DNA of 64,000 nucleotides from Planctomycetota bacterium (GCA_017302815.1 JAFLCQ010000001.1:17652-81651), one strand, 5' to 3'; positions 3,200 through 55,518 are shown, numbered from the stretch's first letter. The notes: a model not told the origin generated them from the sequence alone. Numbers and translations are program-made.

Positions 3200-3200
3200 C

Positions 3201-33002: not shown

Positions 33003-33117
33003 TGCTTCAGCCCGCGACTGCAGTAATGTCCAGGACATGCCGTCACCGCATTGGAACGCCGGCGTTCCCTGTTGCCGTGCTCGACAGGTCTGGCCCAGCA
33101 CCGTTTCCGGAGGTTCC

Positions 33118-37361: not shown

Positions 37362-40300
37362 ATGTCCGGAACTACGCGTGCGTTCGCCTTCGGCGCCATC
37401 GCCTTCCTCATGCTCGTGGTCGCGTCCGCCGGAGCGGCCGTGCCCAGGGATCACGCGATCGCCATCACCGCCACCGTCCAGGTTGACCCCCCCAGGATCA
37501 CCCTGGCCTGGCCGACGATCGCCGGAGCCGGGAGCATCATCCTGTTCCGCAAGGCGCCTGACTCCAGCAGCTGGGGCCCGTTGCTTGCCAACCTGCCCGG
37601 GTCCGCGACCAGCTACGTCGATGCAGGTGTGGTTGTCGGGCAGCGCTATGAGTACCATATCGCCGCCACCCAGAACGGAGTCAACGCGGTAGGCTTCGTC
37701 CTCGCCGGTATCGAGATCCCGCTGGTCGAGGATCGCGGTCGGGTGCTGTTGGTCGTCGACCAGACCCTGCAATCCGCGCTCGCATCCGAGATCAGCCGAC
37801 TACGGAGGGATCTGGTCGGTGACGGCTGGAGCGTCGACACCGTGCCGGTGAGGCGCCAGTCGACCACCGCTACGGCGGGCACGGCGCTGGAGGTGGCCGC
37901 GGTGAAGCAGGCGGTGGATGCTGCCCATCAGGCTGCCGGACGACCTTTGCGCGCGGTCCTGCTCCTGGGCAGGGTACCCGTCCCATATGCCGGCCTGACC
38001 GCTCCCGATGGCCACACCAACCATCTCGGAGCCTGGCCAGCCGACGTCTACTATGGCGCCGCCGGCCAGGAGTGGACCGACCATGCCGTCGACGCTGCCG
38101 GCTCGTCATCGCGACAGAGCAATCGTCCTGGCGACGGGCGTCTCGATCCGACCTGGCTTGAGACGGATTCCATCGCCGTGGCGGTCGGTCGGGTGGACTT
38201 CTCCGCCATGCCCGCCTTCACCGGGCTGACCGAGACAGATCTCCTTCGCCGCTATCTCGACAAGAACCACGCTTTTCGCCATCGCGCGAGGAGCTATGCC
38301 CGCCGCTGCGTCATCGACGACAATTTCGGCGAGCCGGAGCCGGAGGCCAGGAGCGGATGGCTACTCGCATCAGTGGTCGGGTCGGGGCATGTCGTCGCCG
38401 GCGACATCATGGGGGATGCGACGTACTCGCTGTGGAGCTATGGCAGCGGCGGCGGAACCAACACGTCAGCGTCCGGTGTCGGTACGACGGCGAATTATGT
38501 CGCGAACAGCCCGCGCGCCGTGTTCACCATGCTTTTCGGCAGCTGGTTCGGAGATTATGACCAGAGCAACAACCTGATGCGCGCGTCGCTGGCCAGTCCG
38601 GGATCAGCATTGACCTGCGTCTGGGGCGGCAGACCGCAATGGCTTTTCCACCGCATGTCCCTCGGCGAGCCGATCGCGGACAGCATCGTCCTCAGCCAGG
38701 GGCGCCTGCCGTATTACCTCGGCCAATCGGCAGGCATCCATAGCAACCTGCTCGGCGATCCGACCCTGCGCATGTACATCCTCGCCCCACCCGGCGACCT
38801 GAGCGCAGAGGACGGCAATCTGGTTTGGACAGCGTCCGCGGACGCCGCGATAGACGGATTCGCCGGCTATCACGTCTACCGTGCCAACTCTGCAGACGGG
38901 CCATTCGAGAGGCTGACAGCCAGTCCGATCACGGCGACCTCCTGGACCGACCCCACGCCGCCATCGCGTGCGGCCTATCAGGTCAGGGCCGTGGCACTGA
39001 CCACGACTCCAGGTGGCACCTTCCTGAATTGCAGCCAGGGCGCGCATGCCGAGTTCGGCTTCGATGTGCCAGCGGCCACCATCTCCTTCCGCTACGGATC
39101 TGCGGCATTCAGCGAGGATGGCGGCAGCGCCACTGTGGTTGTCGAGCGCACAGGCTCGGTTGCCGCCGCCGCGAGCGTCGTCTATTCAACCATTTTCGGC
39201 AGTGCGACCGCTGCGGATTTCACCCACGTCGGCGGAGTCCTGTCCTGGGATGCCGCAGATGCCGGATCCCGGACCATCACGGTGCCGCTCAGCGCGGATA
39301 CCACGGACGAGCCGAATGAACGGTTCACGGTCGTGCTGTCGGATCCGATGGGTGGGTCGATTCCGGCGCCCGTCTCCACTGTCTGCATAGTCGACGACGA
39401 TGCTCTGCCGACCGTGTCGATCGCCTGCGATCAGACGTCGATCGACGAGGCGGGTGGATTCGCGACGTTCACCATATCGTTGTCCGCTGCATCCAGCCGT
39501 GATGTGTCGATCTCCGCTGCGTTCTGGCCGACGACCGGAGGTGCGATCAGGAACACGGATTATGCGAGCTCGTCGACCACGCTGATCATTCCGGCCGGAA
39601 CAGCATCGGTCAGCGTGATCGTCACGGCCATCCAGGACACCCTGGTCGAGAACGACGAGGAAATCCTATTGATCGTGACTTCGGCGACCAACGCTCGGTC
39701 GACCAGCCCCGACGCCTCGGTGCTGATCGTCGATGATGATCAACCCGTGGTTACGCTGTCGATTGCCGGCGCCGTCATGGCGGAGTCTGACGGCGTCTCC
39801 GTGGTCACCGCGACCCTATCGTCGGTCGCGGTGCGAGATGCCAGGATCGGGCTGGAATTCACTGGCAGCGCCGCGTTGTCGGAAGACTGGTCACGTAGCG
39901 GGGTGTCGGTCCTCATTCCTGCCGGATCGATCAGCGCCTCGATCACGCTTGCCGCCATCGATGATGTCGTCGACGAAGAGGACGAAACCATCATCGTCGA
40001 CATCGGTTCGACGCTGAATGCAGTCGAATCGTCCGTGCAGCGGGTGGTTGCGACGGTCAGCGATGACGACCCGCCGCCGATCCTCGCGATCGCTGATGCC
40101 GCGGTGGTGGAGGGGGATGACGGTTCGACGACATGCGTCTTTGCCGTGGCGGTCAGCGGAGCATCAGACCGTCCGGCGAGCTGCGATTGGGTGGCCACCG
40201 CGCTCAGTGCGACAGCCGGGGTCGACTTCATCGTGGCTGGAGGCACCCTGACCATCCCGGCCGGCGAGGCCGTGGGCGAGGTCGCGGTGGTTGTCTCCGG

Positions 40301-40727
40301 CGATCGTGAGGTCGAGGGAGATGAGACCTTCCAGGTCATCCTTTCGGCTCCGCATGGAGCGACTCTGGACGACGCCAGCGGCACCGGGACGATCATCGAC
40401 GATGACGTCTCCGGAGGCGGATCGTCATCAGGGGACGGAGGTGGCGGAGCCGGTGCTGGTGGCGGTGGCGGCTGCGGTGCTGGTGCGCTTGCGGGTCTGC
40501 TGCTCGTCCTGACGTCTTTGCTTCATCGTCGGGTCAGGCCAACAGGGGACGGGGGATCTCATCCTCGAATTGGACCGGGATCACGGTTGACGACGGATCG
40601 CCTCCATCCCGGACCCTGTCCAGGAGCCGCAGCGCCTGCCGGAGGATGCGACGGGCATCGAATCCGAGCCGGCGGCAAGGGATGGGAGGGGGTGTGGGGT
40701 CCGGGAGGTTGGCGTGGGCGACGATGA
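37362..40727 (+). CDS. Large surface protein: signal peptide, FN3-like modules, unassigned central domain, four Calx-beta domains, Gly-rich/hydrophobic/basic C-terminal anchor-like segment
   Basis: Four repeats of about 100 aa end in the Calx-beta pattern (DTTDEPNERFTVVLSDP, DTLVENDEEILLIV, DDVVDEEDETIIVDI, DREVEGDETFQVILSAP). The GGGGGCGAGALAGLLLVLTSLLHRR segment ends at nt 40532. The ORF then runs 64 more codons into the convergent regulator gene. Confidence 0.75.
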   Translation: MSGTTRAFAFGAIAFLMLVVASAGAAVPRDHAIAITATVQVDPPRITLAWPTIAGAGSIILFRKAPDSSSWGPLLANLPGSATSYVDAGVVVGQRYEYHIAATQNGVNAVGFVLAGIEIPLVEDRGRVLLVVDQTLQSALASEISRLRRDLVGDGWSVDTVPVRRQSTTATAGTALEVAAVKQAVDAAHQAAGRPLRAVLLLGRVPVPYAGLTAPDGHTNHLGAWPADVYYGAAGQEWTDHAVDAAGSSSRQSNRPGDGRLDPTWLETDSIAVAVGRVDFSAMPAFTGLTETDLLRRYLDKNHAFRHRARSYARRCVIDDNFGEPEPEARSGWLLASVVGSGHVVAGDIMGDATYSLWSYGSGGGTNTSASGVGTTANYVANSPRAVFTMLFGSWFGDYDQSNNLMRASLASPGSALTCVWGGRPQWLFHRMSLGEPIADSIVLSQGRLPYYLGQSAGIHSNLLGDPTLRMYILAPPGDLSAEDGNLVWTASADAAIDGFAGYHVYRANSADGPFERLTASPITATSWTDPTPPSRAAYQVRAVALTTTPGGTFLNCSQGAHAEFGFDVPAATISFRYGSAAFSEDGGSATVVVERTGSVAAAASVVYSTIFGSATAADFTHVGGVLSWDAADAGSRTITVPLSADTTDEPNERFTVVLSDPMGGSIPAPVSTVCIVDDDALPTVSIACDQTSIDEAGGFATFTISLSAASSRDVSISAAFWPTTGGAIRNTDYASSSTTLIIPAGTASVSVIVTAIQDTLVENDEEILLIVTSATNARSTSPDASVLIVDDDQPVVTLSIAGAVMAESDGVSVVTATLSSVAVRDARIGLEFTGSAALSEDWSRSGVSVLIPAGSISASITLAAIDDVVDEEDETIIVDIGSTLNAVESSVQRVVATVSDDDPPPILAIADAAVVEGDDGSTTCVFAVAVSGASDRPASCDWVATALSATAGVDFIVAGGTLTIPAGEAVGEVAVVVSGDREVEGDETFQVILSAPHGATLDDASGTGTIIDDDVSGGGSSSGDGGGGAGAGGGGGCGAGALAGLLLVLTSLLHRRVRPTGDGGSHPRIGPGSRLTTDRLHPGPCPGAAAPAGGCDGHRIRAGGKGWEGVWGPGGWRGRR

Positions 40728-41658
40728 CAGGAAGCTCGGCCTCCGTGATGCCGGCTTTGCGCAGCCCGGCTGCGACTTGCTGCAGATGGTTGTCGTCGCC
40801 GATGATCAGGCCGTCGGGGCGCACCTCGGATGGGGCGTCGAACAGGCTCAGGGCGATCTGGGAGGCGACCTCGCCCACGTTCCGCGATGCCGGCAACCCG
40901 AACCACCATCCTCGCCGTGTGGTCATGCCGGCCTTGGCGATCATCGGGGCGTAGCGGTCGTGAGCCCGACCGTCCACGGGATTCGATATGACTGCGAGAC
41001 GCTTGGCCCCGGCTGCGGCGAGGTGCTCGATGGCGCGCTCCATCAATTGCGGGTCGAGGACGATGTTGCTGCCGCCATTGATTTGGTCGGGGTCGCCGAT
41101 GAATGCCCATGGAAACCGGTGGGTGAATACGGTCGACGGCGAGAACGTGATCTGCCATGGAGTCACCGTGAACAGCACCCCGGCGAGCTGGTCGGTGGAA
41201 AGGTCATGGATGAGTCGCTGGTGGTCAGGTGTTGACACGTCCTGACGGACATCGGTGTAGATCGCGAACCGCTGCGGTATCCCCTTGGTCACCTGGGCCG
41301 CCTCCCTGGCCAGGCAGCTGCTGAGCCCCGTCCACTCGCTGTGATCCGGTTGGTAGGGGAAGACGAGGCCGTAGCGATATAGATGCGGAAGTAGTTCGAC
41401 GACGAAGGTTCCATGCCTGGCGCGGGATTCGACGAAACCCGCCTTGACCAGTTCGTCCAGCGCCCACTGCACGGTCGCAGAGCTCGCCTGGAATCGCTTT
41501 TCCAATTCGACCCGGGTCGGGATGCGGGTGCCTGGCTTCCAGGTTCCGTCACGGATCAGCGACCGCAGCTCATCCTCGATCTGCCGTCGCTTGCCGAGTG
41601 CGTATTTCGGTTCTCCGGAATGCGGATGTGGCGTGCCGGTGGTCATGCGAATAGCCAT
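40534..41658 (-). CDS. GntR-type wHTH transcriptional regulator fused to a LacI/PBP1-like sugar-binding domain
   Basis: N-terminal pattern IEDELRSLIRDGTWKPGTRIPTRVELEKRFQASSATVQWALDELVKAGFVESRARHGTFV, followed by a periplasmic-binding-protein-like effector domain of about 270 aa. Confidence 0.8.
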   Translation of the reverse strand: MAIRMTTGTPHPHSGEPKYALGKRRQIEDELRSLIRDGTWKPGTRIPTRVELEKRFQASSATVQWALDELVKAGFVESRARHGTFVVELLPHLYRYGLVFPYQPDHSEWTGLSSCLAREAAQVTKGIPQRFAIYTDVRQDVSTPDHQRLIHDLSTDQLAGVLFTVTPWQITFSPSTVFTHRFPWAFIGDPDQINGGSNIVLDPQLMERAIEHLAAAGAKRLAVISNPVDGRAHDRYAPMIAKAGMTTRRGWWFGLPASRNVGEVASQIALSLFDAPSEVRPDGLIIGDDNHLQQVAAGLRKAGITEAELPVIVAHANLPDPTPPPIPCRRLGFDARRILRQALRLLDRVRDGGDPSSTVIPVQFEDEIPRPLLA

Positions 41659-43381: not shown

Positions 43382-43565
43382 TCATTGGCCGCTGGCGGAC
43401 CGGGTCAGGACCGACCCACCGGGCGGGACTGCCGGAGCCGCGAGATCCGGCCGGCTTTGCTTCAGCGTGCATGAATAGCGTTCCGCTGGGCGTGTGGTGC
43501 GCGATGGAACACCCGCGTATCATGAAGGCATGACGATGCCTATGCGGAACGCGGCAGCAGTGGGC

Positions 43566-46500
43566 ATGGCAAGGAGATATGCTGACAGTACCATCCTGAC
43601 CATGGTGGTGCGCCCGTCCGTCGCGAACCCGATCACGGGCATCACCCTGTTCGAGGTGGCCGTGTCGGCCGCCATCCTGCTATTCGTTGCCGTTGTCGTC
43701 TTCCTGAGCGTGACCACATCCCTGCGCACCCAGCAGCAGGCCCGGCTGCAGATCGCCGCATCCAGCCGCATGATGCAGCTCAGCCAGGCCTGGGCCCATG
43801 CCGACAACCGCTTCGCCGACCTCTGCCTCGAACGCGCCGAGATGGCGGCTCTGGGCACCGAGGTCGAGCACGATCTCGAACGACGCCTGTTCCTCCAGGT
43901 CACGCCTCCGTACGGCGGCAAGGAAGGCCACTACGCCGGCTGGGGCAACGTCGGCGTCGTACCGCCGTCCATCGTGGCCAGGCTCGACAGCGAGAACGAC
44001 GAGATCCGCAGGGTGCTCGCCGACGGGGGACAGCTCTATTATTTCCGCCCGGGCAGCGGGATCGCTGGACGTCATGGTGGCGAGCATGAAGGCACAACCT
44101 CCGCGACTGGCGACAACCAGCTCGACAGCGAGACGCGCAAGCTGGTATTCGCGGTGCGGGGCAAGCCGCAGCAGAACGGGCTGCGCAACCATCCGGCCTT
44201 GGATTGGCCCACCCACGAGTCGTACCCGGGTCCCCCCCAGCCCCACCACCGTCGCACGTGGGCCTGGAACATCGACCATCTCAGCCCAACGCAGCTGTCA
44301 TCGACCGTCACCGGAGTCGGTCGCGTCAAGGTCCTGGCGGGCGGCAGCAGCTTCGCCCAGCCGCCCAAGGTTGTCATCGAGGCGCCGGTAAGTGGGCGCA
44401 GGGCCACGGCCCGTGCCATAGTAAACCTGGGTCGGCTCAGCGCCGTCGAAGTCACCGATCCGGGGTACGGCTATACCGTGGCACCGACCGTGACGCTCGT
44501 TCCGGTCGATGGCGGGATCGGGGCCTCCGTCGAGGCGGTCACGACGCCGCTGTCGATGGCCCTGGTCGACTACGGTGCGGCGGATGCCGACAGCGAGATC
44601 AGCCAACCGAAATGGACGATCAGGTACCCCGGGGTCACCTGGCGGTCATCGGACCGCCTTGATTGCGAAGCCGCATTCAATCAGCTCTATGATTACTGCT
44701 ATCACTTCCGGACTCCGGGCATCGATGCAACCCTGGACGACAGGACCTGGGTCGATGCGCCGCATACCAAACTGGTGATGCTGCCGCAGGATTCATCGCC
44801 TTTGACGGTGAATTACAAGAATACTCTGATGCTCCGAATCCCCCCCAAGGATCGCCTTGGCTACATTCATGGTAAAAGCAGCTCGTATGATGACTGGCGG
44901 GATCCGGTGAATCGCTTCGGGCATGCCGGATACTGGCTGACCCAGATCCAGAGGACTCCTGGCACGTGGACCAACTGGACCGGAACTGTAGCGAAACCGG
45001 GCTATGCGCCGTGGGTCGGAGCTTGTCCAAGCGTACCGTCCGAGCCGTTCTACCAGCGCATCGATCTCGCCATCCCCAACTACGACAATCCTGTGTCGGA
45101 GAATGCGTCCACCGGCTCCGGCGGCAGGCTACATCAACTCCTGTTTCTCGCGCAGCAGCTGGTGCGCTTGACGATGATCGAGGGACCGGCGGGGGCATCG
45201 CAGATGACCTATGAGGACGTGGTCGATCCGGTCGATCCCGTGCTTGGCGTCCGCTGGCCGCTCCCTCATCCTCCCCAAGCCATTCCCGTGCCGGTGGGAG
45301 GGTGGCAGGACAGCAATGAGCAGGTGTTTCCACCGCCATTCAAGATCCAAGCCCTGTCCTACCTCGCGTGGGCTGCTCATACCGCCACCCGGGTCGCCGC
45401 TCCCGCCAATCCGGTCGGCGATGCCAACTGGGACCAGGGTGGCGGCATCCGCAGCATTACCGTCCTCGTTCCCGGCTCTGGCTACTCCGACCCGCCGCGG
45501 GTTGTCCTGTCGGGCGGCCCTGGCCATGGCTGCGTTGCCGTGGCCCAGCTTGATCCAGGCACCAAAGGGATATCTGCCGTACGCATCCTGAATCAGGGGT
45601 ACGGCTATGATCCGGCGCAGCCGCCGACTGTTTCCTTCGTCGGAGCGGCCACCGCTCCGGCAACTGGCGAGGTGTCGGCGACCGACATCAAGGTGAAGTG
45701 GCCGGATCCAGGTTCGGCGGCAGCCGAGGTCGCCAGATTGCAGGCCTATGCGCTTGCGCTCAATGACCGCTGCCGGCGCTGGGTTGCGCGCTATGCCAGC
45801 GCCGATCCGTATGACTGGGGGGCCCCGCGACCTGCCAACCGGGCCACAGCCTGGGACTTCCCGCTGCTGCAATCCGACGTGCTGCCGAAGGGCTACCATC
45901 GCCCGGATCAGACCACGCGCGATCGTCTGCCGTATGTCGACGACACCACCGTGCGACCGAATAGCGGTGACGCCGATCTATCAGGGTTGCCCGCCCTGCT
46001 GAGCCTGTTTGATCGCAGCGTAGCCGGTGGCGGGACGCAGAGCATGATCGAGCGCTGGCGGATAGAGCGGGATCGTCCGGCTTGGCGCCGTGGCGTTCCC
46101 TACACCATAGGTGTTCCCAGCGGTGCTGCGGCCGAGGATGTCGACCGCACGTGGAAGATCATCGCGCCACGCCAGCCGGTGAACTGGGGGCCGTCCTGGG
46201 CGCTGGATGGCTGGAACCGAGATCGGCGCATCTCCCAGCACGTGCTGCCGCCGGGAAGTCCGGGTGAGATCGAGGACCAACGCCAGGCTGGCAGTATGAA
46301 GATCGGTGCCGACTGGGACAACACGGCTAACCTGCGCTACAGCTGGGGTGATCACAACCGGTTCAACCTGCTTGCGCCGTTCAATGCCGCCGAACGGGCC
46401 AGGGAGGTCGTGTTCTGGTCGGTCGACTGGCAGCAGTATGAGGATTTCGAGACCGCCTATGAGGCGGTCTTCGATGCCCGGAGCTACTCGTCGCATTCCG

Positions 46501-46826
46501 ACTCGCGCAGCCCGCGCTCTCAGCAATACGCTCCAGACATCGTTGAAACCCGGCTGCATGCGGTTGACAGCAGCTATGCGGCATCGTCCGTCGGTGAATT
46601 CGACAATGCGGGCTCGTTCTCCGAGGGCGCCACCACCAGAATCGGCGTTATCGACCGGAATGGGAACGGACGTGCTTTCCAAGAAGACTACACCAAGGAT
46701 GTGATGGAACAAAAGGGCTACAAACCCGACATTGGTCCGTTGCGGGTCACCACCCGCCTCAGTGCGACCCTGGTCGCTCGGTTCCTGTATTACGATGGTC
46801 GAGTCATCTCGGGCCTTCGCCAATGA
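43566..46826 (+). CDS. Giant prepilin-like protein (about 1090 aa) with class III signal G|ITLFE and two internal GxGY..PP.V repeats
   Basis: ANPITG-ITLFEVAVSAAILLFVAVVVFLSV fits the prepilin cleavage/methylation motif. Start candidates are 43494, 43566 and 43602 (all in frame). Repeats at nt 44316-44513 and 45444-45641. Its stop overlaps the next gene's start. Confidence 0.7.
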   Translation: MARRYADSTILTMVVRPSVANPITGITLFEVAVSAAILLFVAVVVFLSVTTSLRTQQQARLQIAASSRMMQLSQAWAHADNRFADLCLERAEMAALGTEVEHDLERRLFLQVTPPYGGKEGHYAGWGNVGVVPPSIVARLDSENDEIRRVLADGGQLYYFRPGSGIAGRHGGEHEGTTSATGDNQLDSETRKLVFAVRGKPQQNGLRNHPALDWPTHESYPGPPQPHHRRTWAWNIDHLSPTQLSSTVTGVGRVKVLAGGSSFAQPPKVVIEAPVSGRRATARAIVNLGRLSAVEVTDPGYGYTVAPTVTLVPVDGGIGASVEAVTTPLSMALVDYGAADADSEISQPKWTIRYPGVTWRSSDRLDCEAAFNQLYDYCYHFRTPGIDATLDDRTWVDAPHTKLVMLPQDSSPLTVNYKNTLMLRIPPKDRLGYIHGKSSSYDDWRDPVNRFGHAGYWLTQIQRTPGTWTNWTGTVAKPGYAPWVGACPSVPSEPFYQRIDLAIPNYDNPVSENASTGSGGRLHQLLFLAQQLVRLTMIEGPAGASQMTYEDVVDPVDPVLGVRWPLPHPPQAIPVPVGGWQDSNEQVFPPPFKIQALSYLAWAAHTATRVAAPANPVGDANWDQGGGIRSITVLVPGSGYSDPPRVVLSGGPGHGCVAVAQLDPGTKGISAVRILNQGYGYDPAQPPTVSFVGAATAPATGEVSATDIKVKWPDPGSAAAEVARLQAYALALNDRCRRWVARYASADPYDWGAPRPANRATAWDFPLLQSDVLPKGYHRPDQTTRDRLPYVDDTTVRPNSGDADLSGLPALLSLFDRSVAGGGTQSMIERWRIERDRPAWRRGVPYTIGVPSGAAAEDVDRTWKIIAPRQPVNWGPSWALDGWNRDRRISQHVLPPGSPGEIEDQRQAGSMKIGADWDNTANLRYSWGDHNRFNLLAPFNAAERAREVVFWSVDWQQYEDFETAYEAVFDARSYSSHSDSRSPRSQQYAPDIVETRLHAVDSSYAASSVGEFDNAGSFSEGATTRIGVIDRNGNGRAFQEDYTKDVMEQKGYKPDIGPLRVTTRLSATLVARFLYYDGRVISGLRQ

Positions 46827-47947
46827 ACATGCCCAATCGCCGCTCCGGTATACCAATGTCAGACCCGTGGGCGGGATTCACTCTCCTCGAGATGATGCTG
46901 GCTCTCAGTGTCGGCCTGATGCTGATCCTGGTGACCGTTGCGTTGTTCCGGGCAACCAGCAAGGCCATCATCAGGTCCAACCGGATTGCGACCCAGAACC
47001 AACTGCTGATTGCGGGCATCTCGTACGCGCTCGACGATCTTGATGGTTGGGATACGTTGAATGATCCCGCCGATCCGACCAATCCGACCAAGCGCCCGAG
47101 GTTGTTCGTTGCGGCTCCGGTAAACGACGGTCGGCCATTCAACTGGCTCAAGCCATCCTATCCCGTGGGCGCGTTCCGCGCCAGCGATCCCAAATGGTGG
47201 TATGGATACAGGTTCGTCACCGCCGCGCGTGAGCGTGTCCCTGGCGGGGCATTGGCGCCGCAGTTGCCGCAATGGGTGCAGTTCGGAAGCCGAGGAGATC
47301 CGGTTGCGGATCGCGCATTCCTGCATCGCTGGCCGTATTATCTCTTCGAGCAATTGGGAATGTATGGCATGATCGACTATATGCCTCCAGGCGTTCCCAT
47401 CGGCCTGGCAGATATGTCCAGCCGGACTGTCAATGCAGTTGCGATCTGGGAGCCGAGTTGGCTGTATCCCTTCGAACTCATATCAGATACGACTGGATAT
47501 ACCAATCTTGTCCCTTCCGAGTACCCGATGACTGGCAGTCTAGGGCGTGAACAGTCTGTTGTCATTGTGAGTAATGATCTCGGATCTGGGGCGACGCCGG
47601 TAACGCAGCTCTATAATCGTAAGGTGTACTATGCGTCGAATCGCAATTCGACATTAACGAACAAGAATGCATTGTATCGGTTCTTCACCGCCGACGTTGC
47701 GCCGGTCCGGATCCTGCCCGCTGATGCCCCGTCTTCGATGGCGTCGTCGGCCCCTGTGGGACCAGTTGACTGGCCGCAGCTCGAGGTCGCTTCCTACAGG
47801 CTCATCCGCCGTGGTGTGCACCACAATCTGGCGGTCATCAGATTGCAGGATCCGATGACTGGCGAGATGCTTGCCACGACCGTCAGTGCCGTGAGCACAA
47901 CATTGCGTGGTGCTCGGATTGAACGCGGATTGGATGTGCTGCCATGA
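46823..47947 (+). CDS. Prepilin-type N-terminal cleavage/methylation domain protein (GspJ/minor-pilin-like, 374 aa)
   Basis: MNMPNRRSGIPMSDPWAG-FTLLEMMLALSVGLMLILVTVALF. 4-nt overlaps with both neighbours. Confidence 0.8.
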   Translation: MNMPNRRSGIPMSDPWAGFTLLEMMLALSVGLMLILVTVALFRATSKAIIRSNRIATQNQLLIAGISYALDDLDGWDTLNDPADPTNPTKRPRLFVAAPVNDGRPFNWLKPSYPVGAFRASDPKWWYGYRFVTAARERVPGGALAPQLPQWVQFGSRGDPVADRAFLHRWPYYLFEQLGMYGMIDYMPPGVPIGLADMSSRTVNAVAIWEPSWLYPFELISDTTGYTNLVPSEYPMTGSLGREQSVVIVSNDLGSGATPVTQLYNRKVYYASNRNSTLTNKNALYRFFTADVAPVRILPADAPSSMASSAPVGPVDWPQLEVASYRLIRRGVHHNLAVIRLQDPMTGEMLATTVSAVSTTLRGARIERGLDVLP

Positions 47948-49137
47948 GTTGTGTCAGGTCGGATCGGGGAGCGGTGCTCATCATAGTCGTCGGGATCGCG
48001 ATGCTGCTGCTCGCCATGACCACGGCGTTCGTGGCGCGCATCCGTTCTGATGTTGAGGCGGCAAGGGTCCTCGTCGGTGAGGCGCAGACCAGGACGCTGA
48101 TCGCGGCTGCCTGTGCCTATGTCCTCGAAACCGGGCGGATCGGTTGGGGCGAAGAGGCGTACGGCTGGTGCGACATCCGCGATGACAGTGATCCGGCTGC
48201 CCTGCCTGGTCCACGCGGAAGGGATGGCCGACAACTGCCCAAGCGTCACGATGGAAGCTGGGCGGTCGATCCGGCTGCGGCACCGCTCTTGCGCTGGCCG
48301 GCTATCGGTGGCATCGCCCGTTGTCCGATGTTTCTGCCGACTCTGCCTCCGTATGCCACCAAGGGACAGTACGCCTATAATCCGGTGCCGCGGCGCTCGT
48401 ACAGCCTCGCCGAACCGGATGCGTCCGGTTACCCATCCACCTGGAGCATCGGCGTCCGCTACAATGCGCTCAGTCCGCAGCCGGCTGCGTTTCCCAATCC
48501 AGAGCCGGCGGGACCTTGGCGATGGGATGATGCGGCCAGTGGCATCCCTGGTGGATATGCCGAAGTCTCGACTGCATTTGCTGCTGGCGGGCGCGTTGTG
48601 AACACGGATCCAGGCAGCCTGCAAGGCTTGGCTGGGACGCAGCTCGGATGGTTTCGGGTATTGCGGATAGGCGTCGATGTCTTCGTCGTCTCGGCTGGCA
48701 GCGGAGCCTCGCGCGGGTTTCGCACGTGGCAGGAAGTGGTCGAATCAGGCGCACAAGCTATATTCTACAATGATCCGGCCTTGTTCCGCAGCGCCTCTGC
48801 GTCGGACCGGCCATTGTGGTATGAGATCCAGTGGTCCTCATCGGTTGGCGGCCGTGGAACGGGGCAGTATGCGGCTCAGTCGGTCATATCCGATCTTGGC
48901 AAGGACCACACGAACTCCGACGTCTTTCAAATATTGGCGCCACCGCATCTGGGGTACGAATTGATTCCACATGGTCTTCCATCAGGCGTTACGTACCCAG
49001 ATGTGCTTTCGCGTGACATGCCGCTGCACAACTCTCTGTCATTCAAGAGTAGAAGTTCATCACCGCATCAGGGGGTCAACCAGCTGGGCACCCTGTCGCA
49101 GATCCGTCGCCTGTTCGCGGAGCCGGCATTATGGTGA
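47944..49137 (+). CDS. GspK/PilX-like minor pseudopilin (no Glu5), 397 aa
   Basis: The N-terminus SDRGAVLIIVVGIAMLLLAMTTAFVARI resembles GspK-type hydrophobic segments that lack the conserved Glu. Position within the pilin operon supports the call. Confidence 0.6.
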   Translation: MSCVRSDRGAVLIIVVGIAMLLLAMTTAFVARIRSDVEAARVLVGEAQTRTLIAAACAYVLETGRIGWGEEAYGWCDIRDDSDPAALPGPRGRDGRQLPKRHDGSWAVDPAAAPLLRWPAIGGIARCPMFLPTLPPYATKGQYAYNPVPRRSYSLAEPDASGYPSTWSIGVRYNALSPQPAAFPNPEPAGPWRWDDAASGIPGGYAEVSTAFAAGGRVVNTDPGSLQGLAGTQLGWFRVLRIGVDVFVVSAGSGASRGFRTWQEVVESGAQAIFYNDPALFRSASASDRPLWYEIQWSSSVGGRGTGQYAAQSVISDLGKDHTNSDVFQILAPPHLGYELIPHGLPSGVTYPDVLSRDMPLHNSLSFKSRSSSPHQGVNQLGTLSQIRRLFAEPALW

Positions 49138-49706
49138 AGCGTGGATTCACGGTGGTCGAGCTCCTGACCGCCATGGCGATCATCGGGATCCTCATCGGCA
49201 TCCTGATCCCGACAGGCATTATGATCCTGAATCGGAAGGACGTGCAGACGACGCGCAGCCTGGTTCAGGCCGTGGTTGCGGCCATGGCCGCGTATCCCGT
49301 GCGGTCCTGGGAGGTGCGCATAGCCGATACATCCGGTGTAAATCCATCGCTGCGCCACGCGTCCTACCCCTGGCTGTGGGATCTGAACCAGCAGGAACCT
49401 GGCGATCGACCAGGGGACGGCCTCATTGATGGAATCCCTGCGGCAGCAGCTGATGCATCCCATGACGGCCCCTTTTGGAGCGGCCTGATTGCCTCAGGCT
49501 ACCGTGGCTTCGCCGAGATGGCGATGCCGAACCTGCCTGAATCCCGGCGTGCGGCGAACGGCCAGCCGATCGACGCGTGGAAGCGCCCGCTGCGCGTGCG
49601 CTATTCGGGCATGAATGGCGGTCCGGGCGGGTATGAAGTGTGGTCTGCAGGTCCTGACGGGATAGATGGGTCATCCGATGACATCCGCGATGATGGTGCG
49701 CGATGA
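49131..49706 (+). CDS. GspG-like major (pseudo)pilin
   Basis: MVKRG-FTVVELLTAMAIIGILIGILIP with C-terminal DAWKRPLRVRY...YEVWSAGPDGIDGSSDDI, matching the T2SS-G pattern (DPWG.PY.Y...S.GPDG..GT.DDI). Confidence 0.8.
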   Translation: MVKRGFTVVELLTAMAIIGILIGILIPTGIMILNRKDVQTTRSLVQAVVAAMAAYPVRSWEVRIADTSGVNPSLRHASYPWLWDLNQQEPGDRPGDGLIDGIPAAAADASHDGPFWSGLIASGYRGFAEMAMPNLPESRRAANGQPIDAWKRPLRVRYSGMNGGPGGYEVWSAGPDGIDGSSDDIRDDGAR

Positions 49707-50368
49707 GCGGAATGTCTGCACGTACGTGCGGGTTCACCCTCGTCGAGCTGGTCGTCGTCCTGTCGATCGTCACCCTGCTTGCTGCGATCGCCGCACCACG
49801 TGTCGTGGCTGCACTGGGCCGCGCAGGTCTGGATAGAGCCACTGCATCCGTGGTCGCGACTGCCGCCGCAGCCCGGACCATGGCGCAACAGCAATGGATG
49901 CCGCAGATCAACCAGGCGCCAGCACGTTTCGGGGTCGTCATCGTCCAGTCCGCCGGGCAGCAACCGTATGTGGCACTAACCTATGGCATCAGCAATCCGC
50001 CGTTGCCCGAAGAAGTGCTGCTTCGCAAAGAGCAGTCTTGGCGGACATATGCGGAGTATCTGGCCACTCCCAATGAACTGGATGCCAACGGCCAGCCCAT
50101 CCCGGTACGCATGGCACGCATCGGAGGCGATCTCCTGTTCCACCGGCCTCCAGCGGCAACTCCGCTGGCTGACCAGCCTATCTCCGGCAGCTGGGGATGG
50201 ATATGCCATCCTCGTCGTGGTGCGATCGTTTCTGCCTTGTCGACATGGGCGAAGCCGGTCGATGTCGGCACTTCTCCGATGCTGGTTGTCCGTAACAATG
50301 CTGCACAGATGGCTGCGGCGATAGCGATCTACAGCGTGGGAGCGAGCCATGTGCAGACCTTGCGCTGA
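49703..50368 (+). CDS. Prepilin-type N-terminal cleavage/methylation domain protein (GspH-like)
   Basis: SARTCG-FTLVELVVVLSIVTLLAAIAAP. 4-nt overlap with the upstream gene. Confidence 0.75.
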   Translation: MSGMSARTCGFTLVELVVVLSIVTLLAAIAAPRVVAALGRAGLDRATASVVATAAAARTMAQQQWMPQINQAPARFGVVIVQSAGQQPYVALTYGISNPPLPEEVLLRKEQSWRTYAEYLATPNELDANGQPIPVRMARIGGDLLFHRPPAATPLADQPISGSWGWICHPRRGAIVSALSTWAKPVDVGTSPMLVVRNNAAQMAAAIAIYSVGASHVQTLR

Positions 50369-50375
50369 TCCTCGG

Positions 50376-51692
50376 ATGGCATGCAGGGCTGGGTTCACCC
50401 TGGTCGAGCTGCTCCTGGTGATCGCGGTAATCCTCGTCCTCGCCGGCATGATTCTCGCCGTCCGCGGTCCGCTGATGGAGTCCCAGCGCGCCAGTCGGAC
50501 GAGGGCCATCCTGGCGATCATCCAGCAGGGGCTCTCCCTGTGGGGTACCGAGCACGGCTCGGTCCCGTCCCCGGTTGAGCACCCGTTCGCTGGCTCCAAG
50601 GCTCCTCGTCTCGATTTCCGGGGCCTGCGATCCGGCGTCTGGACCGACCTGCTTCCTACCGGCGAGGCATTGTGCGGGGTCGACGAGGCGAGGCTGGACG
50701 TCGTCACGGACCCCACGGCTCCGCAGCGCCTCTTGGGCCCGAATGACCTCTTCAATGAACCGGACATCCCGGCATTCTATGGTGTCGAGCGATCCCACAT
50801 GGGCATCCTGGGTGAGGCCCAGGCGAACATCACGCGGCGTCTGGATCTGTCGTTGGCGCCGGGCAGCGGTGTCATCCAGGCGGGAGCGAATGGCTACCGC
50901 CCCTACGATCGATGGGCCTTCGCGGGCAGTCCCAGGTGCGCCGCGCATGTCTCGATCGATCCACCGCATTACCCCGATCTCCGACTGGGCAACCCGGCGT
51001 TCCCGCGCAGTGAATATCTGGTCGAGGGGATAGCGCGTACGGTCGACAAGATTCCGGATCCGGCCTTGACGGGCAGCGGATTCGGCATTGCAACCATGTG
51101 TAGCAGTCCGCTTGGACCAGCTGATCAGGCGGTGGCATTATCTCTGTACCTGAGCCAGGCCGTGTTGCAGGAACTGCGTGACCTTGGAGGGGCCACGGCG
51201 CCAGCCGATGATGATCCATCGCGTCTCGTTGTGCCCGGTCCTGGCGTTCCGGCTTGCGCGGAGTGGGTTCCGGAATTGAAGCAGCGTTGGCTGCTTGGCC
51301 GGGACCCTGGCCCCAGCCCGGTCGTGGTCCAGCGGCCCTATCAGGCGAGTGTGCCAAGGGTCTGGTCGGATGGCGTCGGCACCGCGACGTGGGAACCCGG
51401 GCGAATACGCGCCTCGCTCGATGGGAGTGGGTCATGGGTGCGCTACCGCCTGCGCGGGCTGGCGCTGTACGACGCCTGGGGGACGGAACTGCTGTATGTG
51501 CGCAAGTCTGATGGCACACCGATCGTCATCTCGGCAGGACGTGACCGCTGCTTCGCCCTGGTCCCCGGCTTGCGCGATGCGAATGGGGCCAGCATCTTTG
51601 CTACCAGTCTCGCCAACGGTCTTGCCGGTGGTCCGGTTGCTCCGGATCGCGATGGACGACTCGACAACATCAGCCTCGATGGGAAGCGCTGA
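50376..51692 (+). CDS. Prepilin-type N-terminal cleavage/methylation domain protein (438 aa)
   Basis: MACRAG-FTLVELLLVIAVILVLAGMIL; short leader if ATG 50376 is used (the tracked start is 50349). C-terminal YDAWGTELLYV...ISAGRD echoes the GspG C-terminal pattern. Confidence 0.75.
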   Translation: MACRAGFTLVELLLVIAVILVLAGMILAVRGPLMESQRASRTRAILAIIQQGLSLWGTEHGSVPSPVEHPFAGSKAPRLDFRGLRSGVWTDLLPTGEALCGVDEARLDVVTDPTAPQRLLGPNDLFNEPDIPAFYGVERSHMGILGEAQANITRRLDLSLAPGSGVIQAGANGYRPYDRWAFAGSPRCAAHVSIDPPHYPDLRLGNPAFPRSEYLVEGIARTVDKIPDPALTGSGFGIATMCSSPLGPADQAVALSLYLSQAVLQELRDLGGATAPADDDPSRLVVPGPGVPACAEWVPELKQRWLLGRDPGPSPVVVQRPYQASVPRVWSDGVGTATWEPGRIRASLDGSGSWVRYRLRGLALYDAWGTELLYVRKSDGTPIVISAGRDRCFALVPGLRDANGASIFATSLANGLAGGPVAPDRDGRLDNISLDGKR

Positions 51693-51739: not shown

Positions 51740-54502
51740 ATGTCGACCATGGATAGTCAAAGCGGCAATGAGCCATCGCCATCCAGCGTAGGCGAGGATT
51801 CGGCTCTCCATCGCGCCATGGGGATGGAGACTGCGGTGTGGCGTCGTGCCGTCGGGGAGGGCCGCCTCGGCTCTACGGACATATCTGCCGGGAATGGCGG
51901 GTCTCGGTGCATGGAGGGTCTGAGCCTTACCGCGCTGGTCGAGGATGCGCGGCAGGTGGGGCGCCGGCATGCCATGCCCCTGGTCGTTCTGATAGAGGTG
52001 TTCCACAAGGCGGCTGTCCAGATCGCCCGCGCCCACGACCGCTTGGTGCTGCACGGCAATCTCGATCCCGATAAGCTGCTGGTGGGCCGTTTCGGCGAGG
52101 TCGTCATCACAGACTGGTCCTCGAATCGGCAGACCTGTGCGACATCCAAGCCATGGACCGGCGTTTCTGCGGGTGGCCGTCTCGGACCGGAAGACGATCT
52201 GTATGCGCTGTGCGCCTGCATGTGGTACGCATTGCATCTCGAGCCCCCGGCGGAGGGCGATCTCAGGCCATCGGACAAGCTCCCGCCGGCCGTTCGGGAT
52301 CTGCTGCTGCGTGGCCTTTCGCCGCAGCATTCCATCCGGTTCCGCGATGCCCACCGGCTCACAACTGCAATCCGAGCCTTGGCGCCGGTCGGATACCGCT
52401 TTGATTCCGAAGGCGCCTTGTCCACGTATCGGCGGCGGACGGCATGGATCGCCGGATGGATCTTCGCCATATCGCTGCTGGCGGCGGCAATAGTCTCCGT
52501 CATCGTGGTGGTGCGACCACTGACCGCATCCCGGCCAGTGGAACATCGTCCTGCGCCTATTCTGCAGGAATCGTTCACCGATGAATCGTGGAGAGGACGT
52601 TGGAAGCCGCGAGGTGATCCGGACCAGTTCACCGTCACGGATGGCGCCCTGGTGAACCGGACGGAATCGGCGATCCTCGTCCTCGACCGACTGATCGCTC
52701 CGCCTGCAACGATGGAATTCGTCGGCGAAATTCCTGCTGGCAGCGATCCCGGCGACCTGTCCGTCGTCTGGGGGGAGGGCAGTCTGCTGGATCCGCTCTG
52801 GACCTTTCCGCATGCGGCGAAACTGCCCGACAAGGGGCGGTTCTACCTGTTCCAGAATGGCGCCTATGACAACACCTATTCCTGCATCCAGCAGTCGGCC
52901 GACGGGATCCTTGCCAGCGTTGCGTATCAGCACGAGCGTCTGGATATCGGACGCAGGTATCGGATTCGCGTTGAGATCGAGTCCCGTAGCGTTGCGATGT
53001 GGCGGGACGGTCGTCTGATCGGCCGGCACGAGTTCGATGTCGCATTGCGTCCAGGTACCTTCGCCTTGTATCTCTATCACCCAGGCAAGCAGGTGCGTGA
53101 TGTACGTGTTTGGTCGGGTGAACCGATGGCGGATCCATTGCAGGTCGGGGATGCATTCCTGGGCGTCGGCGCGGCCTCCGCGGCGGCCGACTCATATATG
53201 GGGGTCATCCAGTCCGGTAGGCAGCCCCAGCTTGTCGAATCGGCGCGTTACCGCCTAGGTCTGGCGCAGCTGGCGGCTGGTGAGCGGGAGGCATCGGTCG
53301 CGACATGGAGCGGATTGCGGGATCCGGTGCTTGCCGGCCGCAGCAGGCTTCAGCAACTGGATGCCCTGATTGCAGCCGGAGCCCATGACGCAGCCCTGGC
53401 GATCCTTGAAGATGTGTATGTCCGCATTCCAGATCTGCGAGGCCAGGTCGCGGTGCGGTTGGCGGCGATTCTTGGGCGCGTCACCTGGGATCAACGTTTC
53501 GACGACTATGTCCAGCTACGCGAACGACTTCTGGCGAATGATGACATCACCGGAATCAGCGCCGCCCGCTATCTGGGATGGCGCAATCGACATGAACGTG
53601 TCGTGGCGCGCTATTCGAAGTATCGTGCTATCTATCTCGACAGCCTGTTTGCTCTGGGTGACCTGGATCGTGCGGAGCGTGACGGTTCCGACATCCCAAG
53701 CGTAAACGTGCGTCTGGCCCTGGAACGCGGGCAGTTCGAGCTGCTGGCCTCGCGTCCGGTAGGCCACGTGCTGGCATCGTGCCTTCTGGGGCGTTTTGAT
53801 GCGGCCGCCGCAGCATCACCCGGGGATCCCTTGCCGCTGCTATATGCCGGGCGATTCGCGGAAGCGGCTGCCAGTGTCGGCCCGGAGCGGCTCGTCACCC
53901 TGGCCCGGCGATGGATGTCCGGGTCCTCCGGTCCCGAACTGCGGATCGGGACAGAGCGTCTCGATGCCCTCGTGCGCTCTGCCTTCGATGCGGGCAGGGA
54001 TGGATGGTGCGATGCCCGGCTCGGAGCGGAGGCGTTGCTGCGAGGACGTATCGAGGGGCGGGCGGCGGATGAGCAGAGCAAGCTGCTCGTCATGCTGTCA
54101 AATTCGAAGGCGAGGCAGGAGGATCCACTGGTCTGGTTCCACCACCTGGTGGTTCCTGCGTATCTGCAGGCCCTGGATGGTCATCCGGAGGCATTGGACG
54201 ATGCGGTCGCCAAGGTGTCCTACCGGTATCGCGACCGCTATGGACAGCGGTTCTGGTACTTCGCGCAGCGCGTATGCGGGTTGGTCGACGAGGGGGCCTT
54301 CATGGCCCAGCCCGCCCGGGTCGAAGCCCAGGCGTGGCTCGCGCTCGCTGACGCCATGGCGGCGGATCGCCGTGGGGATCGATCGGCTGCTTTTGCATAT
54401 TGGCGATCCTTGGCAGCAATGCCTCCGCACAGGCGCTGCTTCGGCGGTATCGAAGGCAGCAGGGTGGCAGACGTGCTCATCGCCTGGCGCAGCTCGCCAT
54501 GA
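51740..54502 (+). CDS. Single-pass membrane protein: degenerate Ser/Thr-kinase C-lobe (pseudokinase), TM helix, LamG/DUF1080-like module, TPR-like helical repeats
   Basis: HGNLDPDKLLV stands in place of HRDLKPxNILV (nt 52052 onward), and ITDWS in place of DFG (nt 52109). There is no Gly-rich loop or VAIK upstream. TM helix WIAGWIFAISLLAAAIVSVIVVV at nt 52445-52513. The C-terminus is Ala/Leu/Arg-rich helical repeats. Confidence 0.65.
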   Translation: MSTMDSQSGNEPSPSSVGEDSALHRAMGMETAVWRRAVGEGRLGSTDISAGNGGSRCMEGLSLTALVEDARQVGRRHAMPLVVLIEVFHKAAVQIARAHDRLVLHGNLDPDKLLVGRFGEVVITDWSSNRQTCATSKPWTGVSAGGRLGPEDDLYALCACMWYALHLEPPAEGDLRPSDKLPPAVRDLLLRGLSPQHSIRFRDAHRLTTAIRALAPVGYRFDSEGALSTYRRRTAWIAGWIFAISLLAAAIVSVIVVVRPLTASRPVEHRPAPILQESFTDESWRGRWKPRGDPDQFTVTDGALVNRTESAILVLDRLIAPPATMEFVGEIPAGSDPGDLSVVWGEGSLLDPLWTFPHAAKLPDKGRFYLFQNGAYDNTYSCIQQSADGILASVAYQHERLDIGRRYRIRVEIESRSVAMWRDGRLIGRHEFDVALRPGTFALYLYHPGKQVRDVRVWSGEPMADPLQVGDAFLGVGAASAAADSYMGVIQSGRQPQLVESARYRLGLAQLAAGEREASVATWSGLRDPVLAGRSRLQQLDALIAAGAHDAALAILEDVYVRIPDLRGQVAVRLAAILGRVTWDQRFDDYVQLRERLLANDDITGISAARYLGWRNRHERVVARYSKYRAIYLDSLFALGDLDRAERDGSDIPSVNVRLALERGQFELLASRPVGHVLASCLLGRFDAAAAASPGDPLPLLYAGRFAEAAASVGPERLVTLARRWMSGSSGPELRIGTERLDALVRSAFDAGRDGWCDARLGAEALLRGRIEGRAADEQSKLLVMLSNSKARQEDPLVWFHHLVVPAYLQALDGHPEALDDAVAKVSYRYRDRYGQRFWYFAQRVCGLVDEGAFMAQPARVEAQAWLALADAMAADRRGDRSAAFAYWRSLAAMPPHRRCFGGIEGSRVADVLIAWRSSP

Positions 54503-54522
54503 TCATCCACCGGTGTCATTCC

Positions 54523-55518
54523 ATGCGAAATGCCGGATTCTCGCTCATCGAACTCGTGCTGGTCATGTCGATCATCGCGGTCCTAGCCCTGCTGATGATC
54601 CCGTTGATCGGATTTTTCCGTGAGCAGGCTCGCTGGGCGGTGACGACAGCGCGCATGCAGGATCTGTTGACTGCTGCCGCGGCGCTTGAAAAGACTGCGC
54701 TAACCCTCCAGCGCCAGGGCGGTCTCGGAGGCGTGACGCTGTTCATCCGGAAGTCACAAGCGCAGATCGATCTGGTCAACAGCAATCCCTCGCGCAACAA
54801 TCCGTTTCTGGACACCCCGATGGCGGCGAAACCTGCGGAATGGTTGACCCAGTCGCAGTACGATCAGCCCTGGTATTTCGGGTTCCCATGGAACGAGACG
54901 GATCGCATCCAGGCCAGATCCTCGTCGATGCTGCCTGCGGGCACTGTTTCCGAGTCGCAAGCGATCGATGCTGCCGGTTTCCAGACGGCGACGCTGTCCG
55001 ACCTGTCGCCACTCCGTTCGTTCGAGCTGATGTCGGCCATGGGGGCATTCAATGATGTGGCCGATGCGGCTGCGTCCTACCGCACGGATCGTGGTGCGGA
55101 CCGGCGATGGAATGATGCTTGGGGCCGGCCTCTGGTTGTTGCATTCGGACTATTCCAGCCTCCGCCCAGGACCGCGATTATCTATGACGCGTACAGTCCA
55201 ATTGCCACGTTTGCGCAGGACGGCTGGCGTGTCGCGGAATCGCTGAAGATGTATGGCTATGATCGGGCTATCTACGTGTCGGTCGGTGCGGTCGGACCGT
55301 CCTTGCCCGCTGGTCTTCCGCCCGATTCGATCACGGATCCGGCAGCTGGCGTTTGGACGGCGACTGTGCTTCCCTCCTTGTGGAGCAGGATCACTACGGC
55401 TTGCGGCGGTTCGACTTGGACCGGGGCGTCGTTTGCTTCGCCGCCATGGAAATCGGTGCGCACGGCCAAGGATACGGAGGGGGCATGCGCACTCTCTGCC
55501 CCAGCTGTTCTGCGCTGA
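54523..55518 (+). CDS. Prepilin-type N-terminal cleavage/methylation domain protein (331 aa)
   Basis: MRNAG-FSLIELVLVMSIIAVLALLMIPL from internal ATG 54523 of the tracked ORF, 20 nt after the pseudokinase stop. Confidence 0.78.
   Translation: MRNAGFSLIELVLVMSIIAVLALLMIPLIGFFREQARWAVTTARMQDLLTAAAALEKTALTLQRQGGLGGVTLFIRKSQAQIDLVNSNPSRNNPFLDTPMAAKPAEWLTQSQYDQPWYFGFPWNETDRIQARSSSMLPAGTVSESQAIDAAGFQTATLSDLSPLRSFELMSAMGAFNDVADAAASYRTDRGADRRWNDAWGRPLVVAFGLFQPPPRTAIIYDAYSPIATFAQDGWRVAESLKMYGYDRAIYVSVGAVGPSLPAGLPPDSITDPAAGVWTATVLPSLWSRITTACGGSTWTGASFASPPWKSVRTAKDTEGACALSAPAVLR

Follow-up and report, generated by a model that had tools for sequence, protein, structure and literature searches.

A gene at positions 43,566 to 46,826 of a 64,000-nucleotide stretch of DNA from a Planctomycetota bacterium (GCA_017302815.1 JAFLCQ010000001.1:17652-81651; the whole stretch is referred to below as the window) was analysed computationally. 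The encoded protein of 1,086 amino acids (aa) belongs to a new family without annotation, comprising 262 or more clusters (50% identity), the conserved features of which are an N-terminal pilin-like region and a C-terminal region of approximately 370 aa. It is very probably a genuine type IV pilin-like protein of this Planctomycetota family and, judged from its signal and its gene context, probably acts as a giant minor pilin or pseudopilin of a filament tip or priming complex that displays a ligand-binding head. A preceding description of the gene (the sequence-only reading) had drawn attention to a prepilin signal and to a duplicated module of the type GxGY...P.V.

The binding partners of a type IV filament, and its very assembly, are decided by the minor pilins, of which very few large ones have been characterised. 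With the present finding, an unannotated family of pilin-like proteins of 550–1,400 aa is added, as are two partner families. Their genes occur as very numerous paralogues in a little-studied bacterial lineage and provide concrete candidates for the surface fibres of Planctomycetota. The protein is a good target for structure determination, because its conserved core is without a match in Pfam, NCBIfam or the PDB. The occurrence of phage tail-fibre-like modules within a pilin means that phage and cellular surface appendages have modules in common.

Family membership and distribution

When 5.8 billion proteins were searched with the target sequence, full-length relatives were confined to P0002 (48% identity, from a metagenome-assembled genome (MAG) at NCBI) and P0003 (32%), all other matches covering the repeat only; P0012 was recovered additionally by an exhaustive profile search. 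A repeat-free profile covering the 377 C-terminal positions was searched against 1.84 billion representatives of 50% identity clusters. At E<=1e-3 it recovered 262 proteins, of which 218 also reached E<=1e-10; most are 550–850 aa in length. The database copy of the window protein, P0001, scored 658.6 bits in this search. The strict prepilin pattern was present in 109 of the 147 proteins that were fetched (consensus [RK][GA]/FTLFE[VI]A[IV]SL; the slash marks the predicted cleavage site here and below), and most of the remainder are fragments or have mis-called starts.

The distribution of homologues, the mapping of which had been recommended in the sequence-only reading, was determined by scanning one genome per GTDB species: the 113 relatives found were all located in uncultured Planctomycetota MAGs (one labelled Brocadiaceae). 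An origin of the window in Kiritimatiellota or Verrucomicrobiota, considered at first, was abandoned on this evidence. Among the 79 loci kept, at least 18 paralogues belong to SMAG_U12054, 8 to MGR_bin416 and 6 to Co_metawrap_1754. Except for the N-terminal methylation motif, neither Pfam nor NCBIfam contained a model that matched the target or the family profiles; no sequence relative was found in the PDB, and no account of the family was found in the literature on the Verru_Chthon cassette or on pseudopilins in Kiritimatiellota and Planctomycetota. New are the family itself, its two partner families, which likewise lack annotation, its restriction to uncultured Planctomycetota and the high paralogue numbers per genome. 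The architecture had initially been regarded as unusual and rare; given a family of this size, with members of 550–1,400 aa, it is not a one-off. As regards the "pilin-anchored giant head" that had been proposed, the pilin-type anchor and the large non-helical part are retained, but the arrangement is neither unique nor defined by the repeats.

Start codon and prepilin-type N-terminus

The three in-frame ATG codons that are candidate starts (3/3) all lie upstream of the prepilin motif, at 43536 (1,096 aa), 43566 (1,086 aa) and 43602 (13-aa leader). The database protein P0001 uses the start at 43536 and agrees exactly with the 1,096-aa reading. Residues are numbered here according to the 1,086-aa reading from ATG 43566, which is the start given at the head of the sequence-only reading; its residue numbers for the internal modules differ from ours because they had been counted from GTG 43494.

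In this numbering, the sequence ...NPITG/ITLFEVAVSAAILLFVAVVVF occupies aa 21–46; Gly stands at –1, Ile at +1 and Glu at +5, and a stretch of some 20 hydrophobic residues comes next. A class III (prepilin) signal is characterised by a short leader with Gly or Ala as its last residue (–1), a hydrophobic residue at +1, Glu at +5 and a hydrophobic stretch of about 20 residues, all of which are present here. Approximately 1,040 residues follow the motif, so that this part of the initial description is confirmed. Corresponding N-termini are found in P0003 (MMHPHRRG/MTLFEVAIS) and P0012 (...CG/FTLFEVSIS). In the full-length alignment of 119 sequences, position –1 is occupied by Gly in 72 and by Ala in 43 sequences, +1 by Phe in 86, +2 by Thr in 110, +3 by Leu in 116, and +5 by Glu in all of the 118 sequences aligned there. 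Ala is atypical at –1 of prepilin-peptidase substrates; that it is found there so often might mean that the peptidase of this lineage has relaxed specificity. The TIGR02532 cutoff is exceeded by P0003 (17.5 versus 16.3), P0021 and P0022, the last two of which also exceed that of PF07963. When the family N-terminus was compared by hhalign with GspG, GspH, GspI and GspJ of E. coli, alpha1 was matched with probabilities of 65–88%.

It is hardly credible that the open reading frame (ORF) is an artefact, or that the real start lies 3' of the helix and leaves no prepilin N-terminus. Spurious long ORFs are numerous in a genome of 65% GC, and the deposited NCBI call for P0002 (GCA_041442895.1) begins with MALLGMVAGIVFLG, within the conserved alpha1 helix. 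The N-terminal motif is, however, kept at the protein level across the 119 sequences, which speaks against the downstream start that the sequence-only reading had itself considered. It is also included in the gene calls of P0001, P0003 and P0012, and the next in-frame Met past the N-terminal helix (aa 69) falls inside the conserved alpha1. The prepilin region is translated, given its conservation in homologues, and the NCBI call of P0002 is probably too short, the real start with the prepilin motif lying upstream.

Conserved core and predicted structure

The N-terminal region of the family is characterised by the motifs G/FTLFE, PLPxxIARRLDSDxDEI, GGxLYY and LVFAVxGxxQQN, and the C-terminal region by PYDWGAPRP, FWxVDWxxYEDFE and DRNGN, with YDxR...LR at the extreme C-terminus. 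The DRNGNG loop of the window protein, conserved in over 90% of the 119 family members, resembles in its sequence pattern a calcium-binding loop of the EF-hand or dockerin type; PilY1 and several pseudopilins are calcium-dependent.

Structure prediction with AlphaFold on the 119-sequence alignment gave a model with a mean predicted local distance difference test (pLDDT) of 68 and a predicted template modelling score (pTM) of 0.70. Confident parts comprise alpha1 (aa 28–77, pLDDT 93–96), the conserved N- and C-terminal segments, several strands and the first GxGY module (pLDDT 85–92), while the subfamily-specific regions 381–519, 784–858, 882–916 and 977–1025 were left unmodelled. A prediction from only three sequences (pLDDT 29.9) was uninformative save for the repeats. 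A pilin alpha-beta fold beyond alpha1 is not demonstrated, because Foldseek matched no PDB structure to the core. Structure prediction followed by Foldseek, the approach recommended at the outset for the large head, thus provided no PDB relative, and the best matches in BFVD correspond to the stretches with the GxGY modules.

Inserted GxGY modules

The two related segments of about 65 aa that had been noticed at nucleotides 44316–44513 and 45444–45641 are borne out and correspond to aa 251–316 and 627–692. On pairwise BLASTP they share 38% identity over 66 aa (E=1e-8), so that the self-alignment is significant; an alignment shifted by one half-unit gave E=0.011. Each segment had been described as containing two GxGY half-units. 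The overall duplication stands, but module 1 begins with a degenerate half-unit, in which GGSSF...PPKV takes the place of GxGY.

Each module separately matched PHROG phage structural families, with E-values down to 1.2e-9 and 1.7e-10 (profiles including phrog_5342, phrog_708 and phrog_701), and both were modelled by AlphaFold as beta-modules. Foldseek against BFVD gave 29 matches at E<=1e-3, with E reaching 1e-6. The best of these extend over approximately 70–100 columns coinciding with the GxGY module; the top three superpose with a root-mean-square deviation of 0.9–1.6 A, and the identity of the modules to BFVD models is 35–41%. The matched proteins are phage tail-fibre and baseplate proteins, endosialidase-like proteins and further components of virions. 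Searches with the repeat found no Pfam model and no solved structure. Both modules of the window protein therefore resemble the phage GxGY...P.V beta-repeat in profile and in model, but whereas the phage repeat and that of bacterial surface proteins such as P0006 form long tandem arrays, two isolated copies are present here within a pilin-like protein.

The modules are not defining for the protein. Among about 150 family members inspected, they are confined to four long ones, and in the 119-sequence alignment the occupancy of the region around module 1 (aa 240–345) is essentially zero in the 115 other sequences, which identifies it as a subfamily-specific insertion.

Gene triad and cassette

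The target gene is the first of a compact operon that contains seven pilin-like genes and a gene for a putative membrane pseudokinase (Table 1). Overlaps of 4–20 nucleotides (ATGA-type) at 46823–46826, 47944–47947, 49131–49137, 49703–49706, 50349–50368 and 54499–54502 suggest translational coupling of the pilin-like proteins. Six canonical prepilin motifs occur in the window, all of them within this cassette. The whole cassette is kept gene for gene around P0002, P0003 and P0012 at 32–51% identity. With regard to the question whether the giant gene always comes first in such operons, this holds for the window and the P0002 contig but not for the P0003 and P0012 contigs, where a pilin-like gene, the homologue of the 339-aa protein, lies directly upstream of it.

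The window cassette proteins were searched by tblastn against 82 loci. Relatives of the 397-aa and 374-aa proteins were found in 72 and 63 loci, respectively, usually directly downstream of the family gene; those of the 339-aa (16), 447-aa (12) and 191-aa (10) proteins were less frequent. The order giant protein, 374-like protein with Glu5 and 397-like protein without Glu5 accordingly recurs across dozens of loci. The 374-like family keeps G/FTLIE (alignment A5). The N-terminus of the 397-like family reads R-x-G/T-[IV]-L-I-[IL]-V-A-G, in which Glu5 is never present; some Trp, Arg and Gly residues of the family are, moreover, invariant, and GTIRWIQRL..EP..W is a conserved motif at its C-terminus. 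The 397-like family gave no Pfam, NCBIfam or PDB match (a PDB sequence search included), and among E. coli GspG to GspK its best hhalign match was the N-terminus of GspK, which was not significant. The 191-aa pilin scores above the cutoff of PF07963 and matches PF08334 weakly.

The 920-aa cassette protein carries a degenerate C-lobe of a Ser/Thr kinase, with HGNLDPDK in place of HRDLKPxN and DWS in place of DFG, and is without an N-lobe; from these substitutions it looks like a membrane pseudokinase. At the locus of P0003, the cassette is followed by a gene that opens with a canonical kinase N-lobe (GQGGMGMVY...AVK).

Relation to described systems

Minor pilins prime assembly and cap the filament, and tip pilins of the GspK and PilX type are without Glu5. 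The window triad resembles GspI-J-K of type II secretion systems (T2SS) and FimU/PilV-PilW-PilX of the type IVa pilus in that three prepilin-type proteins are encoded by adjacent genes in the same order, that its last member is likewise without Glu5, and that its operon also includes the gene for a small GspG-like pilin. The N-terminal hidden Markov model (HMM) matches of family members are preferentially to PilV and GspI. The equivalog cutoffs of GspI (TIGR01707, 44.35) and PilV (TIGR02523, 52.2) are not reached, the best scores being 8–26 bits over the N-terminal helix only. Differences are that no sequence or structural likeness of the triad is detectable beyond alpha1, that the protein in the I position has 550–1,400 aa rather than the approximately 125–185 aa of GspI and PilV, and that the triads occur in up to 18 or more paralogous copies per genome, unlinked to assembly machinery.

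The Verru_Chthon cassette (TIGR02596, TIGR02598, TIGR02599, TIGR02600; Verrucomicrobia, Chthoniobacter), is similar as a cassette of the Planctomycetota–Verrucomicrobiota–Chlamydiota (PVC) group in which one very large protein is combined with several prepilin-type proteins. The models of Verru_Chthon proteins B, C and D gave weak N-terminal matches, far under their cutoffs and restricted to the pilin helix, and that of protein A (TIGR02600) gave none at E<=10 for the window protein or P0003.

In PilY1, a Sec signal is combined with a C-terminal beta-propeller. The window protein shares with PilY1/PilC the large size, the presumed functional tie to a set of minor pilins and possibly a calcium loop (here DRNGNG), but it has a prepilin signal and shows no propeller match (Pfam, E<=0.01). 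The window protein falls outside the families GspI/PilV, PilY1 and Verru_Chthon A, since the defining HMM matches are absent.

Modular pilins are defined by an N-terminal pilin motif and at least one module that is not specific to type IV filament biology (Raynaud et al. 2021, PMC8179133); they are widespread and present functional modules at the filament tip (PMC8179133). The window protein, which combines a prepilin motif with two modules that also occur in tail-fibre and baseplate proteins of phages, falls under this definition. As in S. sanguinis PilB (vWA) and PilC (lectin), CofB of enterotoxigenic E. coli and Thermus ComZ (PMC8179133), a pilin N-terminus is combined with bulky modules thought to be displayed at the tip for ligand binding. 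In contrast to these, the extra mass is no recognisable linker-appended domain, neither Pfam nor NCBIfam nor the PDB offers a match to the conserved core, and the GxGY modules are inserted internally, twice. The principle is not new, because pilins with extra modules are widespread (PMC8179133) and tip complexes of minor pilins are well known; new are the size range, the window protein with its 1,086 aa exceeding the most extreme multi-domain modular pilin singled out (860 aa; PMC8179133), and the internal insertion of modules of the phage tail-fibre type.

Assessment of the proposed function

As a giant minor pilin or pseudopilin, the protein would be cleaved after Gly25 by a prepilin peptidase encoded elsewhere. 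Its alpha1 would first anchor it in the inner membrane and then pack into the core of a type IV filament. Together with its two partners it would form the tip or priming complex, like GspI-J-K and PilV-W-X, with the Glu5-less 397-aa protein at the apex, and the filament body might consist of the cassette's 191-aa GspG-like subunit or of a pilin encoded elsewhere. The non-helical part of about 1,000 aa would project from the tip as a ligand-binding head, which in the four-member subfamily would additionally bear the two phage tail-fibre-like beta-modules in variable regions of the core. The occurrence of multiple paralogous triads in one genome suggests that these may supply alternative tips. 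An adhesin role is plausible.

That the ligand is a glycan is a tentative proposal that we consider doubtful. It was prompted by the local context of carbohydrate-active enzyme (CAZyme) genes and by the reported binding of dextran, a polysaccharide, to pili-like fibres on planctomycete cells (PMC5394234). The most far-reaching version of the proposal appears improbable. According to it, at least 18 interchangeable tip triads per genome in some uncultured Planctomycetota, each with its own head and often with an adjacent regulator, would serve to re-tip one type IV machine for different ligands; the resulting filaments would be the dextran-binding fibres (PMC5394234), and the core would have a fold without a solved relative.

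Several observations weigh against a role in a filament tip. The window protein itself gave no match to PF07963 or TIGR02532 and thus lies below the Pfam and NCBIfam thresholds for the N-methylation motif; it has Ile at +1 and is without the family's Arg at –3. Family scans of the window detected no gene for a prepilin peptidase, ATPase, platform protein or secretin, and tblastn with E. coli GspD, GspE, GspF, GspL, GspM and GspO over 1.34 Mb (the window and the fetched loci) gave a single GspE-like match, so that linked T2SS or type IV pilus machinery was dropped from consideration. Likeness to GspI, GspJ or GspK past the N-terminal helix was undetectable by hhalign and in PDB and profile searches, Foldseek of the 119-sequence model against the PDB gave no pilin or other match at E<=0.001, and the analogy with the I, J and K proteins draws on gene order and the Glu5 pattern only. 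The glycan link is weak, because the genes flanking 12 paralogous loci are heterogeneous. A further point, the 36% of family members with Ala at –1 (43/119), is taken up below.

The single GspE/PilB-like match is an ATPase fragment at positions 16805–17413 of locus L018, about 2.6 kb downstream of the last pilin-like gene of the cassette; it is the sole one among 82 cassettes.

Of the alternatives, the tip of a T2SS-type pseudopilus deserves most attention and is rather unlikely. The filament would be a short periplasmic pseudopilus, the giant tip of which recognises or pushes out cargo, for example the products of the nearby glycoside hydrolase genes, and the protein would be no surface adhesin. 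The 191-aa and 221-aa proteins indeed match the N-terminus of GspG best (TIGR01710; E-values in Table 1), with a weak T2SSG match. The gene order is like that of gspI-J-K, and genes for secreted proteins of the CAZyme type are abundant in the window and on the P0002 contig. Apart from the GspE-like match, however, no GspD, GspE, GspF, GspL or GspM is found near any cassette, and the scores for the GspG, GspH, GspI, GspJ and GspK equivalogs are all far under the cutoffs. Moreover, at least 18 tip sets in one genome are hard to square with a single secretion piston, and a tip subunit of about 1,000 aa would need to traverse or plug the secretin.

Very many proteins of Planctomycetota have prepilin-type N-termini. 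The class III signal might accordingly serve only to insert a large protein of the periplasm or the surface into the inner membrane and to anchor it there, for instance a receptor or binding protein that acts with the pseudokinase of the cassette, and the protein would be no filament subunit. We regard this as improbable. It would agree with the core, in which neither a pilin fold nor a PDB match is detectable, with the frequency of Ala at –1, with the missing linkage to assembly machinery, and with the presence of a membrane pseudokinase with a large outer domain in the extended cassette. Against it stands the strict retention of Glu at +5 (118/118). This residue is required for contacts between subunits in filaments, not for membrane anchoring. 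The consistent co-occurrence of the family gene with a Glu5-less K-like partner and a small GspG-like pilin likewise favours a giant minor pilin or pseudopilin.

A non-pilin tip adhesin of the PilY1/PilC type, or Verru_Chthon cassette protein A, with a hydrophobic N-terminus by chance, would account for the large size, the adjoining minor-pilin genes and the weak N-terminal matches of cassette neighbours to Verru_Chthon proteins C and D, but is effectively refuted by the family scans: there is neither a PilY1/Neisseria_PilC beta-propeller domain nor a TIGR02600 match even at E<=10, the prepilin motif is absent from PilY1, and the Verru_Chthon matches amount to a generic pilin helix far under the cutoffs. 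The sequence-only reading, which had already set the protein apart from PilY1, was correct in this respect.

Feature coordinates and genomic surroundings

The positions of the features in the window are collated in Table 1.

Table 1. Features of the gene for the giant pilin-like protein and of its cassette (positions in the window).
Feature	Position	Strand	Basis or remark
Full ORF of the giant pilin-like protein	43494..46826	+	Stop codon 46824–46826
Leader peptide (aa 1–25), ending with Gly25, predicted prepilin-peptidase cleavage site G/ITLFE	43566..43640	+	Sequence; family column –1
Mature N-terminus: hydrophobic alpha1-N with Glu+5, then long alpha1 (aa 28–77)	43641..43796	+	Model, pLDDT 93–96
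N-terminal conserved region (aa 21–240), VVPPxIxxRxDSxxDEI...GGQLYYF and LVFAVRGKPQQN	43626..44285	+	Alignments A1, A3; occupancy ~1.0 in other members
Insertion 1 (aa 240–345), contains GxGY module 1 (44316–44513)	44283..44600	+	Absent from 115 other family members
GxGY module 2 (aa 627–692), PGSGYSDPPRVVL ... QGYGYDPAQPPTVSFV	45444..45641	+	Alignment, profiles, model
C-terminal conserved region (aa 720–1086), RYASADPYDWGAPRP, end YYDGR...LRQ; query that recovered the family	45723..46823	+	Alignment
Motif FWSVDWQQYEDFE (aa 951–962)	46416..46451	+	W955, D960 and E962 invariant in 119 sequences
DRNGNG loop (aa 1030–1035)	46653..46670	+	D 110, R 116, N 111, N 100 of 119
374-aa pilin-like partner ("J-like"), WAG/FTLLE, Glu+5	46823..47947	+	4-nt overlap with target stop codon
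397-aa pilin-like partner ("K-like"), DRG/AVLIIVVG, without Glu+5	47944..49137	+	Sequence, homologues
191-aa GspG-like pilin, KRG/FTVVE; candidate filament subunit	49131..49706	+	TIGR01710 E=8.8e-11 (N-terminal part)
221-aa pilin-like protein, CG/FTLVE	49703..50368	+	TIGR01710 E=8.1e-8
447-aa pilin-like protein, AG/FTLVE	50349..51692	+	Family scan, motif
920-aa membrane protein without pilin motif, transmembrane helix aa 236–258, ~660-aa outer part	51740..54502	+	Sequence; homologues in 5 related loci
339-aa pilin-like protein, AG/FSLIE	54499..55518	+	Sequence, homologues

The cassette is flanked in the window by genes for a GntR regulator, glycoside hydrolases of families 28 and 95 (GH28, GH95), a pectate-lyase-like enzyme and large proteins with a carbohydrate-binding module of family 9 (CBM9) and with Calx-beta domains. 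Across the window and the P0002 contig, genes for secreted proteins of the CAZyme type abound (GH28, pectate-lyase-like, GH95, sulfatase, fucosidase and GH130). When 93 ORFs flanking 12 paralogous loci were scanned against Pfam, the picture was heterogeneous (AraC regulators four times, a few CAZyme-like domains, FGE-sulfatase, PA14 and the planctomycete-specific domains PSD and PSCyt). Surroundings rich in CAZymes are therefore not typical of the cassettes in general, and the notion that the cassettes always lie among CAZymes was dropped.

With regard to regulators, one of the AraC family is encoded 3.7 kb downstream of the window cassette (59238–60104, + strand), and the four AraC ORFs of the Pfam scan lie beside paralogous cassettes (12 loci, L005–L060). 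The GntR/Peripla_BP regulator is located upstream of the cassette (40534–41658, – strand); GntR regulators are also present on the P0002 contig.

Two very large proteins are encoded upstream of the cassette, one of 1,472 aa (32815–37233, + strand) with PQQ_2, FlgD_ig and CBM9-like matches and one of 1,121 aa (37362–40727, + strand) with three Calx-beta domains. A CBM9/FlgD_ig protein similar to the former is encoded at 15862–19713 (– strand). A complete resistance–nodulation–division (RND) efflux operon, comprising an OEP outer-membrane factor, a HlyD-type adaptor and an AcrB-type pump, occupies positions 444–6356 (+ strand) and is unrelated to the pilin-like genes.

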